In this document: piece after piece, positions 8,722-63,923 of the stretch | Position numbering within the stretch: position 1 is the first letter of the stretch | Layout of the letters: the number at the start of each line of letters is the position of its first letter | NCBI RefSeq assembly: GCF_053078305.1 | Contig: NZ_CP166879.1 | Reading direction: 5' to 3' (one strand) | Length of the DNA: 64,000 nucleotides | Notes under the pieces: generated by a model | Told to the model about the DNA's origin: nothing | Databases searched by the model: none | The model's input: only the letters and a program-made list of their open reading frames with translations | Program-made: the position numbers and the translations under genes

Positions 8722-8761
8722 GGCTATTATTTAAACTATTGTTTTATTTGATTTAGTGAGT

Positions 8762-8800
8762 GCCATTGATGATATTGACTGCATTATCAATGGCATTTTT
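8762..8800 (+). terminator. AT-rich hairpin plus T-run downstream of guaA
   Basis: gccattgat (8762..8770) pairs with atcaatggc (8786..8794), followed by attttt. Confidence 0.4.
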
Positions 8801-9105
8801 CATGGTATAAGGCCGACGCTGAATCGAAGATATAGCAAATACCATGTGACTGTATCAGCAAATGCCATGGTATCGACAACCGGGGGCATTGCAGCGCTGT
8901 GCTGATGCCATCGATGCCCGCTTTTAGTCAGAACACTCTCTCGACCCAAGCCTCCAGATCCTTAAATATGCGCCAGAGGAGCACCTCGTGATCGAAATTA
9001 TGAACAAGACAGCCGCCGCTCGGAATCGAAGTCTCCATATGGGTGAATAAGGTTTGCGGAAAACACGCTGAGAAAATAGAAAAGCGTCAATGAAGGGACA
9101 TAGCA

Positions 9106-10386
9106 ATGGCGATTAACGGAGTGGACGGTGTTAGCGCAGTCACCGTGGATGAACTACTCAAGCAAGGCCTTCGGATACCGAACTATCAACGCCCATACAG
9201 TTGGGAAGTATCGACCGCTCTACAACTGGTGGATGATCTCAGCGAAGCTCTTCGAGATACCGAAAGAAAAGATATTCCCTATGTTTTGGGTGCAATCATT
9301 CTTCACGATGATGGTGAGTATCTCAATGTAGTCGACGGACAGCAACGTCTGCTGACTTTGCGAATGATTCTTGCGGCCTTAGATCCGATAAATCACCAAA
9401 TTTCGGTGTCTGGTAACAGAGAAACCTCTGTCTCCCTGGTTTGGATAGAGCTTCAAAGGCGCCTGTCGCAGTTGGAAGATAAAAAAGAATTTTTGGATTT
9501 TATCTGTCACAAATGTCAGTTGGTGCGTATTGTGACGGACGATATTGATGAGGCATTCCGTGTCTTTGATTCCCAGAACTATCGCGGCAAACCGCTTGCC
9601 CCTCATGACTTGCTCAAAGCACACCACCTGCGCGAAATGCACGATGAGTCCGCTGCTATGAAAGTGGCTGTCGTTGAGGCTTGGGAAGCCGTAAATGATG
9701 AGGATCTGGACAGGCTTTTTTCTACTTTTTTATACCGGATATCCAAGTGGTCACGAGGAGAAAGCTCGCTCGAATTTGCTATTCGGGACATCGGTATGTT
9801 CAAGGGAATTTCATCACGATCCCACAGATCATTTTCGCCAAATCTGCGATATCACCTTGCAGCACAAGCCGCTATGCCACTTCTAAGTGCATGGGCGGTG
9901 TCCTCGACACATGATGCTCGAAATGCCGGGCGCAGCCGCTTTCAGCTTGATGCCCCGATAATCGCTGGGCGCTCATTTTTCGAGATGGTGGCATTCATGC
10001 TTGACGAATTGAAGATACTGGAAAAAGAGGTTATCGACAAAGGTTTCAAAAACTTTGGCCCATCTCAAAGTCGCTACCGCTACGTGTACGAATTGTTCAT
10101 TGCCGCTCTGCTTTGCTATACAAACAAGTTTGGCGATGAAGATGTGGATGAAGTGCGAAATAGGTTATTCGCATGGGCATATGCCTTGCGGGTCGAGTTA
10201 CTTCGTGTGCAATTTGTATCTGCTGACAACCGAGCTCGAGGTAAAAACGATGCAAATAAATCGCCTTTTGTTTTGCTACGCAACGCGATGACTGGAAGTG
10301 TTGTCCGCAAACTTCCAATAGCAAGTCAGCCATACAACGATAACCACGAAAAGGAACTCATTGCTTTTATCAAGGGGCTGCAATGA
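9106..10386 (+). CDS. DUF262 (ParB/Srx-like NTPase, GmrS-like) protein; accessory gene A
   Basis: 426 aa; IPNYQRPYSW motif and DGQQR (nt 9334..9348); later FRVFDSQNYRGKPL motif; no HNH/His-Me motif seen in the C-terminal ~270 aa; ATG 9106 with GGGA RBS; stop overlaps the next start (ATGA at 10383..10386). Confidence 0.8.
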   Translation: MAINGVDGVSAVTVDELLKQGLRIPNYQRPYSWEVSTALQLVDDLSEALRDTERKDIPYVLGAIILHDDGEYLNVVDGQQRLLTLRMILAALDPINHQISVSGNRETSVSLVWIELQRRLSQLEDKKEFLDFICHKCQLVRIVTDDIDEAFRVFDSQNYRGKPLAPHDLLKAHHLREMHDESAAMKVAVVEAWEAVNDEDLDRLFSTFLYRISKWSRGESSLEFAIRDIGMFKGISSRSHRSFSPNLRYHLAAQAAMPLLSAWAVSSTHDARNAGRSRFQLDAPIIAGRSFFEMVAFMLDELKILEKEVIDKGFKNFGPSQSRYRYVYELFIAALLCYTNKFGDEDVDEVRNRLFAWAYALRVELLRVQFVSADNRARGKNDANKSPFVLLRNAMTGSVVRKLPIASQPYNDNHEKELIAFIKGLQ

Positions 10387-12335
10387 GCAAGAAGGAGTTG
10401 AAACCCGAACTGCTAACAGTAGGCAAGCTATTCACGGACAATTATCTGATTCCTATTTATCAACGGAACTATGCTTGGCGGGCCGAACAGATTGAGCAAC
10501 TTATCAGCGATATTCAAGACTCGGTTGTTGGGGGCCAGGACGACTATTTTCTTGGAAACCTTGTTGTAATCAAGCGGGGTAGAGAGGACGAGTTCGAGGT
10601 CATAGATGGACAACAACGACTTACAACCCTCTATCTGCTTCTGACCTTCCTGGAGCAAGACGGTGAGGGTGGGAAGCCGTCGATTGGCCATGCAGGCCAC
10701 TTGCAATATGAGTCGCGTGCACGGGCAACGGAAGCCCTGCGGCGAGTAGCACAGGAGGCGGCTAAGGGGCACGTCCGACCGCAGGGCTCCACGAGTAATG
10801 CAGATGCTGGCATCCATGAAGGCTACAGCATCATCAATCAGTTCTTCAAACAAAATGAAACCCTTAATTGCTCACGCGAAAAATTCTCCGATTTCTTGCT
10901 AACGAAGGTTACTGTCGTCCGTGCCTCGCTGCCACCCAATACAGATCTCAATCGCTACTTCGAGATCATGAACACTCGTGGGCAGCAACTCAAGCAGGTT
11001 GATATTGTTAAGGCTCGCCTGATGAGCAAGCTGCCCAATCAATATGAACGCGAATGCTTCGCCTGGGTTTGGGATGCCTGTGCTGAGATGGATTCTTATG
11101 TCCAGATGTCTCTGACCCGTGGTGACACCAGTTTGCGAAACAAAGTATTTGGCGATGAATGGTCCTGGCTGGAGGTGACCAGCTTCGCGTCGTTAATGGA
11201 AAGTCGTCCGCAATCCGGCATCAATTCTTCAAGGCAATCCTCCGAAGGGGTATCGTTGTCCTTGGATGAGGCGTTGTCAAAATACGCTAAAGAGATCGAG
11301 TCAAATTCCACTGAAGACGAGGGCAACGAGCGGTTTCGTTCGACTATTGAGTTTCCGGCCTTTCTGCTACACGTTCTAAGAATTATGAAAGGCGATGAGG
11401 TCGAAGACGAAGGCCAGCTTGACGACAAACGCCTCATCAAGTCATTTGACGACGCTGTAAATAATGTACCCGATGCTAAAGCCGATTGGGTGCGTAACTT
11501 TACATTCATGCTCCTCAAGTGCCGCAACCTCTTCGATGGCTTCATTTTGAAGCGTCAATTCACGGCGAACATCGGTGACGATGGCGATTGGTCTCTCCAG
11601 CGATTGAAGAAAGGCGGCGCGGACAAGAAGCCAACCCCGACGTATATCCATGTTTTCTCGGCCAGCAATGGAAACTTAGAGGAGGACGGCGGTGCTGACC
11701 CACATACCCGAGATGTATTGCTGCTTCAGTCCATGCTTCGGATAACCTACACTTCTCCGCGAACGATGCACTGGATTACCAAAGTTCTTCGCTGGCTATC
11801 CGTCAAAGCCCCTCAAGACGCGAAACATGCGGATCTTGCCGATTTGTTGAAGGGGTATGCCCGCAGCAAGGTCAAAGAGACATTCCCCTTTGAGGAAGAT
11901 CAGCAACCACAAGGGTTTGGTATCAGCCGCATCGTCTTTTCGTATCTCGACTATCTTCTGTTGAGCGATTCCTCAAAACGAGATTTCAAATTTCAGTTCA
12001 GAACTTCCATTGAGCACTTTTATCCACAGCATCCGGACAAAGAACAGTCGGGCGCGGTTGTTTCAGGTTCTAGCCTTAACCTGCTTGGCAACCTTGCGCT
12101 CGTAAGCGTCAGCGCGAACTCAAAATTCAGCAATAGCCTTCCCAGAGCGAAGGCCGAAAACTTCAAGGATACGATTGAACTTCAAAGTCCCAAGCTCAAG
12201 AGAATGGCGGAAATCACTCGAAATACAAGCTGGGACGATCAGCAGATAACAGCTCATCATGAAGAGATGGTGACATTGCTTCGTGATGATGTAAGTCTGG
12301 TGGAGGCAAGCGGAAGATCCTACCCGGGGCGTTGA
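10383..12335 (+). CDS. DUF262-DUF1524 protein (GmrSD/SspE/BrxU-family type IV restriction endonuclease-like); accessory gene B
   Basis: 650 aa; N-terminal IPIYQRNYAW plus DGQQR (10605..10619) plus FEIMNTRGQQL; C-terminal His-Me finger motifs SIEHFYPQHP (12009..12038) and NLLGNLALVSVSANSKFSN (about 12072..12128). Confidence 0.85.
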   Translation: MSKKELKPELLTVGKLFTDNYLIPIYQRNYAWRAEQIEQLISDIQDSVVGGQDDYFLGNLVVIKRGREDEFEVIDGQQRLTTLYLLLTFLEQDGEGGKPSIGHAGHLQYESRARATEALRRVAQEAAKGHVRPQGSTSNADAGIHEGYSIINQFFKQNETLNCSREKFSDFLLTKVTVVRASLPPNTDLNRYFEIMNTRGQQLKQVDIVKARLMSKLPNQYERECFAWVWDACAEMDSYVQMSLTRGDTSLRNKVFGDEWSWLEVTSFASLMESRPQSGINSSRQSSEGVSLSLDEALSKYAKEIESNSTEDEGNERFRSTIEFPAFLLHVLRIMKGDEVEDEGQLDDKRLIKSFDDAVNNVPDAKADWVRNFTFMLLKCRNLFDGFILKRQFTANIGDDGDWSLQRLKKGGADKKPTPTYIHVFSASNGNLEEDGGADPHTRDVLLLQSMLRITYTSPRTMHWITKVLRWLSVKAPQDAKHADLADLLKGYARSKVKETFPFEEDQQPQGFGISRIVFSYLDYLLLSDSSKRDFKFQFRTSIEHFYPQHPDKEQSGAVVSGSSLNLLGNLALVSVSANSKFSNSLPRAKAENFKDTIELQSPKLKRMAEITRNTSWDDQQITAHHEEMVTLLRDDVSLVEASGRSYPGR

Positions 12336-12553
12336 CTTCTTTGAATAACCGCTTTTGGACGAATGTCCCTTGTGGAGTGCAAGTTGTCAGTTTAAAAGTG
12401 TTTTGCGTCGGGCGACACGATCAGTACAGCTCCCAGGTTTTTTTACCATGGTATTTTGTGTGGTATCGACATGCAAAGATAATGCTATTTTGTTGATTTT
12501 ATAGTGTTTTAAGGCGGCATTGATCATCGAGTGGGAATAAACCCTGTACATAT

Positions 12554-12594
12554 TGCTGAAGTTTTCTTTTCGGATAAAACTTCAGCAGATTTTC
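12554..12594 (+). terminator. perfect 12-bp-stem hairpin downstream of the accessory operon
   Basis: tgctgaagtttt (12554..12565) is the exact reverse complement of aaaacttcagca (12576..12587), 10-nt loop, then GATTTTC; a T8 run follows at 12622..12629. Confidence 0.45.
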
Positions 12595-12686
12595 ACAGCA
12601 AACCCCTCTTATCTCTGGAGGTTTTTTTTACGCAAATTAAAAACCCATAACTCTCACGAATCATGGGCTTTGTGGTAGAAAGACGA

Positions 12687-24763: not shown

Positions 24764-25465
24764 CTGAACACACCGGCACAGCTCTCTTTGCCACTTTATC
24801 TTCCTGACGACGAAACCTTTGCAAGTTTCTGGCCGGGGGATAACTCCTCTTTACTGGCCGCGCTGCAAAACGTGCTGCGTCAGGAACATAGCGGTTACAT
24901 CTATCTCTGGGCACGCGAAGGCGCGGGGCGCAGCCATCTGCTGCACGCGGCTTGCGCGGAATTGTCGCAGCGTGGCGATGCGGTGGGCTATGTCCCGCTG
25001 GATAAACGCACCTGGTTTGTTCCGGAAGTGCTCGACGGTATGGAGCATTTGTCGCTGGTCTGTATCGACAACATTGAGTGTATTGCAGGCGATGAGTTGT
25101 GGGAGATGGCGATTTTCGATCTCTACAATCGAATTCTGGAATCGGGCAAAACACGGTTGTTGATCACCGGCGATCGTCCACCGCGGCAGTTGAATCTGGG
25201 ATTACCGGATCTCGCGTCGCGACTCGACTGGGGGCAGATCTACAAATTGCAGCCACTTTCTGATGAAGATAAGTTGCAGGCGCTACAGTTACGCGCGCGT
25301 TTGCGTGGTTTTGAACTGCCGGAAGATGTGGGGCGTTTCTTGCTGAAGCGGCTCGACAGAGAAATGCGCACGCTATTTATGACGTTGGATCAGTTGGATC
25401 GTGCGTCGATTACCGCGCAACGTAAATTGACCATTCCGTTTGTGAAAGAAATTCTGAAGTTGTAG
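24764..25465 (+). CDS. hda: Hda, DnaA-inactivating AAA+ protein (RIDA), CUG start
   Basis: Product begins at [21 protein letters not shown]... with no in-frame ATG; the codon before NTPAQ is CTG (24764..24766); Walker A GAGRSHLL. Confidence 0.85.
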
Positions 25466-25478
25466 ATAAGGTGTGTAT

Positions 25479-25576
25479 TGTCGGATGCGGCGCGAACGCC
25501 TTATCCGAACTACGCGAAGTTAATCCATAGTATTCGTAGGCCGGATAAGACGTGGCAAGCGTCGCATCCGGCAATG
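25479..25576. repeat. REP/BIME element (two inverted REP units)
   Basis: tgtcggatgcggcgcgaacgccttatccgaactac and gtaggccggataagacgtggcaagcgtcgcatccggcaatg. Confidence 0.75.
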
Positions 25577-25602
25577 TGCTTCAACTAGCGATGGAGCACA
25601 TC

Positions 25603-45762: not shown

Positions 45763-45790
45763 CAGGGCTGGAATCATCCGGCCCTTTTTT
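45763..45790 (+). terminator. rho-independent terminator after bamC
   Basis: cagggctgg aatcat ccggccct followed by T6. Confidence 0.65.
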
Positions 45791-45800
45791 CTGATATGAC

Positions 45801-45816
45801 ACGCAAACGTGTGCGT
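45801..45816 (+). promoter_or_regulatory. PurR operator (pur box) upstream of purC
   Basis: ACGCAAACGTGTGCGT, 14/16 palindromic match to the pur-box consensus. Confidence 0.7.
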
Positions 45817-45869: not shown

Positions 45870-45906
<37 letters not shown>

Positions 45907-45969
45907 ACATCCGGCACACCAGACAGCAAAAGATTTTAAAACGTTAATTCACACCCAGGAGTGATAAAG

Positions 45970-50521: not shown

Positions 50522-50590
50522 GCCGGGTAGGCCTGATAAGACCGTATCAGGCATCATGGCCGGATGCGGCGTTAACGCCTTATCCGGCCA
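50522..50590. repeat. REP/BIME element
   Basis: gccgggtaggcctgataagaccgtatcaggcatcatggccggatgcggcgttaacgccttatccggcc. Confidence 0.75.
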
Positions 50591-50596
50591 CTTAGC

Positions 50597-50797
50597 TTAC
50601 TTCTTCGGTTGATCCTTTTTCGGCCAGTCGTCGTCATCGTCCCACTTATCGTTGAAATCACGATGCGGGGGAAGCTCCGGCTTGTTGGCGAGAAATTTCT
50701 TATGGTCGACGCGCTTGAGATCTTTAATCACGTTCAGCAGGACGCCTACCAAAAAGACAATCACCAGAATCCACCAATATTTAGCCAGCCAGTCCAT
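50597..50797 (-). CDS. ypfN: YpfN, small membrane protein (UPF0370)
   Basis: 66 aa from ATG 50797 ([23 protein letters not shown]...). Confidence 0.85.
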
Positions 50798-61825: not shown

Positions 61826-61842
61826 ACAAAATGGCGGGACAT

Positions 61843-61915
61843 GTAGGCCGGATAAGACGCTGTAGGCCGGATAAGACGCGTCAGCGTCGCATCCGGCAAT
61901 CAGCATCCGGCGATC
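61843..61915. repeat. REP cluster (tandem gtaggccggataagacgc units plus inverted REP)
   Basis: gtaggccggataagacgc at 61843..61860 and 61862..61879, then gtcagcgtcgcatccggcaatcagcatccggcg. Confidence 0.75.
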
Positions 61916-61919
61916 ACCA

Positions 61920-63923
61920 TCAGGCACCTTTTACTCCCAGCACCTTATGCGCTTTTGCCACAATATTCTCGGCGGTAAAGCCAAAGAACGGGAACAGCTT
62001 ATCCGCCGGAGCAGATTCCCCGTAACCCGTCATCCCGACAATTGCCCCTTTCAGACCAACATACTTGTACCAGTAATCGGCAATACCTGCTTCCACCGCC
62101 ACGCGAGCCGCAACGTTAGAAGGCAACACCGACTCCCGATATTCCTCATCCTGGGCGTCGAAAATATCGGTCGAGGGCAGGGAAACTACGCGAACATTGC
62201 GACCTTCTCCCGCTAATTTCTCTGCCGCTTGCAGGGTGATTTCCATCTCTGAACCGGTGGCAATCAAAATAATATCTGGCTTACCGCCGCTGTCTTTCAG
62301 CACATAACCGCCACGAGCAATCTCTTTAACCTGATCCGGCGTACGTTCCACCTGGGCCAGATTCTGCCTGGAGAGAATCAGTGCCGTCGGTCCGTTGTGG
62401 CGCTCAACCGCCAGCTTCCAGCCCACCGCCGCTTCCACCTGATCGCACGGTCGCCAGGTGCTGAAATTTGGCGTTAAGCGCAGGCTGGCCAGTTGCTCAA
62501 CAGCCTGGTGCGTCGGACCATCTTCGCCCAGACCAATTGAGTCGTGGGTATAAACCATAATCTGCCGCGCTTTCATCAGTGCCGCCATCCGCGCGGCGTT
62601 ACGGGCGTATTCAACAAACATCAGGAACGTTGCGGTATACGGCACAAAGCCGCCGTGGTGCGCAATGCCGTTGGCGATAGCGGTCATGCCAAATTCACGC
62701 ACCCCGTAGTGAATGTAGTTGCCCGCCGGATCTTCCTTCAGCGAAACAGAACCTTTCCAGATGGTCAGGTTGCTGGGAGCCAGATCCGCTGAACCGCCGA
62801 GCAGCTCCGGTAGCATCGGCCCGTAAGCGTTAAGCGTATTTTGCGAAGCCTTACGGGTAGCGATTTTCGCCGGATTTGCCTGTAACTCATTGATATATTT
62901 CTGAGTCGTTTTCTCCCAGTCCTTCGGTAAACCACCGCTCATCCGACGGATAAACTCTTCTGCCAGTTGCGGATGAGCCTTTTTATAGGCGGCAAACTTC
63001 TCATTCCAGCTCTGCTGCGCTTTTTCGCCTTTTTCGCGGGCATCCCAGGCGTGATAAATCTCTTTAGGGATCTCAAATGGCGGATGGTGCCAGCCCAGTT
63101 TTTGCCGTGCCAGCGCCACTTCTTCTTCCCCCAGCGGTGCGCCGTGCGCCTCTTCCTTACCTGCTTTATTCGGCGATCCAAAGCCAATCACCGTACGGCA
63201 GATAATCAGCGACGGCTTATCTTTCACGCTTTGCGCTTCAAGGATCGCTTCCTTCACCGCCTGCGGATCGTGACCGTCGATTTCATGGATCACATGCCAG
63301 TGATAGGCTTCAAAACGTTTTGCCGTATCGTCGGTAAACCAGCCTTCGGTTTCTCCATCAATCGAAATACCGTTGTGATCGTAAAAACCAATCAGCTTGC
63401 CCAGTCCCAGCGTGCCCGCCAGCGAACAGACTTCATGGGAAATACCTTCCATCAGGCAGCCGTCGCCCATAAACACATAGGTGAAGTGATCGACGATCTC
63501 ATGGTCTGGCTGGTTAAACTGTGCAGCCAGCGTACGTTCCGCTATCGCCAGCCCGACGGCGTTCGCCAAACCTTGTCCAAGAGGACCGGTGGTGGTTTCA
63601 ACTCCGGGCGTATAGCCGATTTCCGGGTGGCCAGGGGTTTTCGAATGCAGTTGACGAAAGTTCTTCAGCTCTTCCAGCGGCAGGTCGTAACCGGTCAGAT
63701 GCAGCAAACTGTAGAGCAGCATCGACGCGTGACCGTTGGAAAGAATAAAGCGGTCGCGATCATACCAGGTTGGGTCGGTAGGGTTATGTTTAAGAAAATC
63801 GTTCCACAGCACTTCGGCAATATCAGCCATGCCCATCGGCGCGCCGGGATGACCAGAATTGGCTTTTTGTACCGCATCCATACTGAGTGCGCGAATCGCA
63901 TTGGCAAGGTCTTTTCGGGACAT
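61920..63923 (-). CDS. tktB: transketolase 2
   Basis: 667 aa from ATG 63923 ([21 protein letters not shown]...); track ORF is N-extended. Confidence 0.96.

Follow-up and report, generated by a model that had tools for sequence, protein, structure and literature searches.

Introduction

REPs of Escherichia coli are imperfect palindromes of 30-40 nt with GTAG on the 5' side and two mismatches in the stem, and they fall into the classes y, z1, and z2 (Ton-Hoang et al., PMC3333891). They are found exclusively outside genes, for the most part in 3' UTRs of convergent or tandem gene pairs. The family numbers about 600 copies per E. coli genome (PMC3333891), and the consensus GCCGGATGCGGCGTGAACGCCTTATCCGGCCTACGA has been published (PMC12306157). 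Two composite arrangements are defined: BIME-1, in which z1 and y units are joined by a long L linker that often contains an IHF site, and BIME-2, in which z2 and y units are joined by a short linker and occur in tandem copies (PMC3333891). In K-12, 355 REP elements have been annotated in 4.64 Mb (about 1 per 13 kb), and their placement is 60% convergent and 40% tandem (bioRxiv 10.64898/2026.03.23.713779). The same study describes REP325, which has 12 units with Z2 and Y alternating, and puts forward a dual terminator/stabilizer model for it; REP effects overall showed large variance, with no general effect on mRNA half-life (bioRxiv 10.64898/2026.03.23.713779). Spread and rearrangement by TnpA-REP, which requires GTAG and a stem mismatch on the REP strand and a CT cleavage site close by, is the accepted origin of the family, although its proof is still incomplete (PMC3333891, PMC3479197, PMC8266576).

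We analyzed a contiguous stretch of 64 kb (the window), which comparison with MG1655 and the list of open reading frames identified as E. coli chromosome, corresponding to the 56-min region of K-12 from yfgM/hisS to tktB in reversed orientation.

Results

Four Intergenic REP Loci in the Window

The REP content of the window consists of six full units, one half-unit, and arm remnants at four sites (6.5 units within the 64 kb). All four sites are intergenic; three lie between convergent genes (site 1, hda/yfgD; site 3, ypfH/ypfN; site 4, ypfG/tktB) and one lies between tandem genes (site 2, bamC/purC). The features are listed below in window coordinates.

25477-25513, minus strand: u1 (site 1), a Y-type unit with a foot variant; nhmmer E = 6.9e-11; folds as REP325 Y; identical in K-12
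25514-25535, no strand: linker of site 1, 22 nt from CTAC to GTAG; no IHF consensus
25536-25575, plus strand: u2 (site 1), a unit with a Z2-type interior, corresponding to K-12 REP182; nhmmer E = 8.1e-10
45870-45916, plus strand: site 2 as a whole (u3 and a right-arm remnant), corresponding to K-12 REP181
45870-45906, plus strand: u3 (site 2), a single Y-type variant; nhmmer E = 8.9e-11; same fold
45908-45916, plus strand: right-arm remnant CATCCGGCA (site 2), from sequence
50527-50553, plus strand: u4 (site 3), a Z unit truncated to 27 nt, its 8-bp stem perfect; nhmmer E = 1.1e-4
50557-50592, minus strand: u5 (site 3), a canonical Y hairpin with AGTG for GTAG, the counterpart of the REP180 Y unit in K-12; nhmmer E = 5.7e-10
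61842-61860, plus strand: half-unit (site 4; nhmmer match at 61843-61861), an additional REP left half TGTAGGCCGGATAAGACGC that is the first copy of a duplication; from nhmmer and repeat analysis
61861-61899, plus strand: u7 (site 4), an intact unit with a Z2-type interior; nhmmer E = 2.1e-9; identical in K-12
61889-61926, plus strand: 14-nt array (site 4), 2.7 copies, with right-arm remnants GCATCCGGCAATCA, GCATCCGGCGATCA, and CCATCAGGCA

An initial annotation of the window had placed REP sequence at 25479..25576, 45870..45905, 50522..50590, and 61843..61915, and motif counts above those of all shuffles, together with profile matches, bore this out. With up to 2 mismatches allowed, the 5'-arm motif GCCKGATGCGRCG matched 27 times (8.7 +/- 2.8 in shuffled sequence), and with up to 3 mismatches allowed, the 3'-arm motif CGYCTTATCMGGCCTAC matched 8 times (0.31 +/- 0.53 in shuffled sequence); for each motif, 0 of 100 shuffles gave as many matches. 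The canonical REP string quoted in the annotation occurs exactly only at 50559-50589, and the remaining units are variants of it, for which the annotation had allowed.

We then built an nhmmer profile from the six full units and ran it on the window at maximum sensitivity with a threshold of E < 0.01. The matches lay at 25478-25513 (minus), 25536-25574 (plus), 45870-45905 (plus), 50527-50553 (plus), 50557-50590 (minus), 61862-61899 (plus), and 61843-61861 (plus), and comprised the six units, their palindromic self-matches, and the half-unit, and nothing else in the window; the best match outside the REP loci, within hyf coding sequence, had E = 3.1. At that sensitivity, nothing is thus missing from the list of four sites, and the profile scan that the annotation had proposed as a check recovered the sites it named and no further ones. 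A scan of the whole window against Rfam at the gathering score gave 0 matches.

Given 355 elements in 4.64 Mb of K-12, four REP loci are the expected density for 64 kb. The MG1655 RefSeq record lists CDS features only and no curated REP repeat_region features; names of K-12 loci, which follow EcoCyc numbering, were taken from the supplement of bioRxiv 10.64898/2026.03.23.713779. REP180, REP181, and REP182 occupy the same intergenic positions, between the same flanking genes, as window sites 3, 2, and 1, respectively. With the density as expected and three sites coinciding with named K-12 REPs, the description of these elements as ordinary for this type of genome was correct: the REP elements at these loci are already catalogued, known features of E. 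coli. A megablast search with a 38-nt REP unit found a median of 2 places per genome; at a word size of 28 nt it detects near-identical copies only, so the total size of the REP family is not countable in that way.

The Units Are of Y and Z2 Type and Form at Most One Pair per Site

For reference, we extracted a Y unit (GTAGGCCGGATAAGGCGTTTACGCCGCATCCGGCA) and a Z2 unit (GTAGGCCTGATAAGACGCGCAAGCGTCGCATCAGGCA), named after Gilson and Bachellier, from K-12 REP325. Units u1, u3, and u5 are of Y type and have in common the upper stem and loop AAGGCG-TTNN-CGCCGC, as in the REP325 Y unit. The upper stem AAGACGC...GCGTCGC of the REP325 Z2 unit is present in u2 and u7, which differ from it in that G:C (the Y state) replaces T:A at the pair that is diagnostic for Y and Z. 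A compensated foot variant, GTAGTTCGGAT...ATCCGACA, is common to u1 and u3, which lie at two different loci, and is a departure from the REP325 Y reference. GTAG is present in u1, u2, u3, u4, u7, and the half-unit, and u5 has AGTG instead.

As single-stranded DNA, u1, u2, u3, u5, and u7 fold into a stem of 6-7 bp, a 2x2 internal loop, a second stem of 4-5 bp, and a loop of 4-5 nt, which matches the fold of the REP325 Y and Z2 units. Profile E-values for these five long units range from 1e-9 to 1e-11. The 27-nt u4 is not a bulged stem, as its DNA fold is a perfect stem without an internal loop. Both units of site 3 are thus decayed, u4 having lost the internal loop and u5 having lost GTAG. From the presence of GTAG and a stem mismatch, u1, u2, u3, and u7 may still be TnpA-REP substrates, and u4 and u5 are predicted not to be.

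GC-rich hairpins positioned after genes might also be generic intrinsic terminators or chance palindromes that lie outside any repeat family. A U-tract intrinsic-terminator motif was absent from sites 1, 3, and 4, however, and the intrinsic-terminator reading was rejected because the hairpins lack U-tracts. Furthermore, the resemblance of the units to one another and to those of REP325 is one of sequence and not of structure alone, and the motif counts exceeded those in all shuffles. We regard an origin outside the REP family as next to impossible.

The initial annotation had used the joint term REP/BIME. The REP part of this term is exact, and the BIME part is loose, as inverted pairs are present only at sites 1 and 3 and neither pair fully matches BIME-1 or BIME-2. 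None of the four sites contains the IHF consensus WATCAANNNNTTR (at up to 1 mismatch), a z1 unit, or a linker of L length, and none contains a tandem BIME-2 array, there being at most one REP pair per site. A BIME-1/RIP reading was rejected on the absence of an IHF site and a z1 unit and on the length of the site-1 linker, which is only 22 nt. Since an IHF site, a z1 unit, and a tandem array are all lacking, we class site 1 as an inverted pair of atypical form and site 3 as one degenerate pair resembling BIME-2. At sites 2 and 4, a single REP is accompanied by fragments.

The same observations bear on whether the units are architectural protein-binding sites that organize the chromosome, either as an IHF-binding RIP/BIME-1 or as a gyrase-binding BIME-2. 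Binding of IHF by BIME-1 linkers has indeed been described, as has binding of gyrase by BIME-2 and by atypical BIMEs (PMC3333891). However, the IHF consensus (at up to 1 mismatch), z1 unit, L-length linker, and tandem BIME-2 array are all missing from these sites, and even the 12-unit REP325 has no role in chromosome compaction (bioRxiv 10.64898/2026.03.23.713779), which makes an architectural role very improbable.

Site 1 Coincides with REP182 and Its Terminator in K-12

A base-by-base alignment with MG1655 revealed 0-2 base differences at each of sites 1, 2, and 4, and both tandem arrays of site 4 are shared. The 1.1-kb piece around site 1, which includes hda, arsC (yfgD), and bepA, is present at an identity of at least 95% in 5,425 of 5,426 complete E. 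coli genomes. Among these 5,426 genomes, length variation was found at sites 1, 3, and 4. At site 1 it takes the form of a minority allele, present in some strains, in which a 32-bp deletion in u1 and the linker removes much of u1.

The supplement places REP182 (yfgD/hda) at K-12 coordinates 2617969-2618005 and lists a bidirectional terminator at 2617962-2618003, and an in vitro Rho termination peak at 2618004-2618104 overlaps REP182 (bioRxiv 10.64898/2026.03.23.713779, supplement). Unit u1 lies beyond the REP182 coordinates annotated there, yet it falls within the 2618004-2618104 Rho peak. Its stem starts 13 nt past the hda stop codon (25463-25465).

A separate hairpin of 8-10 bp that is not a REP, ATGTGCTTCA...TGGAGCACAT, is located at 25574-25602, in the interval from REP182 to the stop codon of yfgD. 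K-12 has this hairpin too; in RMDEC465, a divergent strain, it is not conserved.

Site 2 Is Conserved and Lies Upstream of purC

Site 2 was conserved in 5,425 of the 5,426 genomes at an identity of at least 95%. REP181 (bamC/purC) spans K-12 coordinates 2597674-2597719 and consists of u3 and the remnant (bioRxiv 10.64898/2026.03.23.713779, supplement). The unit at 45870..45905 was correctly located by the initial annotation, and its extent was too short, as the additional CATCCGGCA remnant continues to 45916. Through its REP part, the site-2 query matched a median of 6 places per genome; the roughly 5 further near-identical places suggest a small REP subfamily with the GTAGTTCGGAT...ATCCGACA foot.

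The intrinsic terminator of bamC (45764-45785) forms a hairpin of its own, and the site-2 REP follows about 85 nt downstream. Between them, at 45801-45816, lies a PurR-box-like sequence, ACGCAAACGTGTGCGT, which resembles the pur operator consensus and is a putative PurR operator of purC. The REP is located about 55 nt downstream of ACGCAAACGTGTGCGT, and the ATG of purC (45970) follows it at a distance of about 55-65 nt; with the putative PurR operator upstream of it, REP181 may be part of the 5' leader of purC. In the supplement, an in vitro Rho termination peak overlaps REP181, antisense to the purC 5' UTR/5' region (bioRxiv 10.64898/2026.03.23.713779, supplement). A literature search for purC, PurR, and REP together found no paper linking them.

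Two Alleles of Site 3 Differ in Hairpin Position

Site 3 of the window and K-12 REP180 are different alleles. Relative to K-12, the window Z unit carries a 10-nt internal deletion and has GTAG for CCTG, the length of the linker is less by 7 nt (3-5 nt between u4 and u5), and the Y unit lacks CTAC and 11 nt of flank. Allele counts were read off identity bands and are approximate: about 2,525 of the 5,426 genomes carry a window-like allele (at least 95% identity), and about 2,838 carry a longer, K-12-like allele (80-90% identity to the window).

IS1397 targets the loops of REPs. In strain ST2747 (NZ_CP007394.1), an IS1397-family element interrupts the Y-unit loop at ypfH/ypfN between GCGGCGTT and AACGCC, a position equivalent to window 50574/50575. 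The insertion carries a frameshifted, IS3-like transposase gene of the IS1397 family at about 330-410 of the ypfH/ypfN locus of that strain.

The stem of u4 starts 14 nt past the ypfH stop codon, and the distance from the end of the u5 stem to the ypfN stop codon (50597-50599) is 7 nt in the window and 19 nt in K-12. According to a rule of Liang, Rudd and Deutscher (2015), as cited in PMC12306157, ribosomes stall at REPs whose distance to the stop codon is <16 nt. We therefore considered that the units might be translation-coupled regulators, in which a stem no more than 15 nt past the stop codon stalls the terminating ribosome and lowers the output of the upstream gene. The distances for hda (13 nt), ypfH (14 nt), and ypfN (7 nt) all fall under the <16 nt rule as given there, and for ypfN the Y hairpin does so in the window allele and not, at 19 nt, in that of K-12. 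Such a role would be additional to REP identity and not an alternative to it, however, and for hda, ypfH, and ypfN it would be drawn by analogy with other genes; we consider it unlikely. If it did operate, the shift of the ypfN hairpin from 19 to 7 nt crosses the published 15-nt threshold, and the output of YpfN could drop relative to K-12-type strains.

Partial Duplications and Replacement at Site 4

The initial annotation had described a tandem duplicated 18-mer at 61843..61915. The duplication and its position are correct; the repeat is a perfect 19-nt duplication of TGTAGGCCGGATAAGACGC (2.0 copies, 61842-61879), the second copy of which is the left half of u7, and the element is about 10 nt longer at its end owing to the 14-nt array. 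This array overlaps the tktB stop codon (61920-61922), its end lying 8 nt from the stop, and in the predicted RNA fold the array and the duplicated left half together make up a nested outer stem.

The extra copy of the left half is missing in strains ETEC1717 and AR_0089. About 1,400 genomes have site 4 at 90-95% identity, and in the members sampled (302-303 bp) the 19-nt repeat is not duplicated; one additional 14-nt copy is present in strain ET979. Nissle 1917 is among the roughly 880 genomes in which another GC-rich element (...CCCCTCGCCCCTCTGGGGAGAGGGTTAGGGTGAGGGGA...) has taken the place of the REP. This replacement element is dispersed (median 6 places per genome) and is presumably boxC-like. 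In VCSW7 and GN02461, it occupies 112-196 of the locus, equivalent to window 61830-61900, and remnants of the right-hand REP arm are retained.

Site 4 lies between REP178 and REP180 and, by this numbering, is probably K-12 REP179. In the list of bidirectional terminators, no entry for site 4 stands between the consecutive numbers 198 and 199, and the supplement rows listed include no Rho peak for REP179 or REP180 (bioRxiv 10.64898/2026.03.23.713779, supplement).

The 19-nt and 14-nt partial duplications at ypfG/tktB, with their nested two-tier hairpin, could have been left behind by TnpA-REP through cleavage and strand transfer, and not by slippage during replication. Taken jointly with the ypfN alleles, this would make strain-specific REP alleles small regulatory switches, with the site-4 duplications as the TnpA-REP footprint, a combined reading that strikes us as decidedly improbable.

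The REP Loci Are Unrelated to the Accessory Cassette

The window also contains a cassette of ~3.9 kb (8722-12683) that is absent from K-12; it lies between guaA and yfgI and replaces the guaA/yfgI terminator region of K-12. Its two genes, at 9106-10386 and 10383-12335, are on the plus strand and overlap. The first encodes GmrSD_N and DUF7834 domains and the second encodes GmrSD_N and GmrSD_C domains; their best PADLOC matches were HEC-06, Orf5, and SspE-like. The cassette looks like a type IV restriction-like defense pair. Short repeats containing GGTATCGAC are present near both ends of the cassette, at about 8866-8886 and 12447-12470.

The profile search found no REP in the cassette flanks, which contain ordinary hairpins only, and the empty guaA/yfgI site of K-12 has an ordinary terminator only and no REP. 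The statement that the flanks lack REPs and that the REPs are unrelated to the cassette therefore holds, and the REP elements are cleared of a link to the GmrSD-type cassette.

Evidence Bearing on Function

When the intergenic RNAs were folded and compared with shuffled sequences, sites 1, 3, and 4 were far more stable on both strands (z = -4.3 to -6.8) and site 2 was modestly so (z = -2.1). A promoter scan of all sites found none that was convincing; the single weak match (9/12, minus strand of site 1) was at chance level. Because no intrinsic-terminator motif is present at sites 1, 3, and 4, there is no other obvious terminator for these convergent gene pairs. REP180 is the ypfN/ypfH Y unit, and its hairpin is among the bidirectional terminators of convergent genes (bioRxiv 10.64898/2026.03.23.713779, supplement). 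By analogy with the K-12 terminators at REP180 and REP182 and the Rho peaks at REP181 and REP182, a role as terminators is most likely in this strain also. The large variance of REP effects and the lack of a general effect on half-life count against a terminator/stabilizer reading, and so do the missing list entry for site 4, the lack of a Rho peak for REP179 or REP180 among the rows listed, and the modest fold of site 2.

A different interpretation is that the units are selfish or neutral relics of TnpA-REP spread, which are tolerated after genes and have no host function at these loci. It is consistent with the length polymorphism of sites 1, 3, and 4, with the occurrence of another dispersed repeat at site 4 in roughly 880 genomes, and with the state of u4 and u5, which have each lost a feature that TnpA-REP requires (the internal loop and GTAG, respectively). 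However, K-12 REP180 and REP182 coincide with bidirectional terminators mapped in the supplement, the three convergent sites have no alternative terminator motif, a strong hairpin or repeat of some kind is kept in all alleles seen, and site 2 is kept in 5,425 of 5,426 genomes. On balance, we think it somewhat unlikely that the units are relics without function. That deletions, duplications, and repeat replacement are tolerated at sites 1, 3, and 4 argues against a strict sequence requirement.

Discussion

We conclude that the four loci are almost certainly ordinary E. coli REPs that were presumably seeded by TnpA-REP and whose 3'-UTR hairpins most likely serve as terminators or stabilizers. 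In the mechanism that we favor, the family would have been seeded and reshaped by TnpA-REP (RAYT), a single-strand HUH nuclease that would be encoded elsewhere in the genome, and its products would be GTAG-tagged, bulged, GC-rich hairpins of about 35-40 nt that are now fixed in 3' untranslated regions. At the convergent sites, which would be transcribed from either side, the hairpins would act as terminators or pause sites that have no U-tract and are partly Rho-dependent, and they would also be barriers to 3'-to-5' exonucleases; the outcome would be that the two converging transcripts are separated and stabilized. The unit upstream of purC, which lies downstream of the bamC intrinsic terminator, would probably affect mainly residual read-through or antisense transcription. 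We also infer a role for TnpA-REP in the local rearrangements.

Across E. coli, all but one of the four REP loci are hot spots for indels, with deletion, partial duplication, IS1397 insertion, or replacement by a dispersed repeat. This survey of alleles is the modest value of the analysis, and it fits the published view of REP sites as variable between strains, perhaps tuning the behavior of 3' UTRs while the coding sequence is untouched. Otherwise, the results are of little importance, in that they confirm a routine intergenic feature of E. coli.

Compared with the described composite elements, site 1 has the topology of BIME-1 (CTAC-linker-GTAG), but it has no z1 unit or IHF consensus and its linker is 22 nt. 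Site 3 is like BIME-2 in that Z and Y units are joined by a short linker, and it differs in being one decayed pair and not an array. The REPINs of Pseudomonas, which are REP doublets mobilized by RAYT (PMC3116915), belong to another sequence family, and the E. coli pairs differ from them further in being fixed at orthologous sites and not recently mobile. What the E. coli pairs at sites 1 and 3 have in common with REPINs is the inverted arrangement of two units and a presumed mobilization by a single-copy RAYT.
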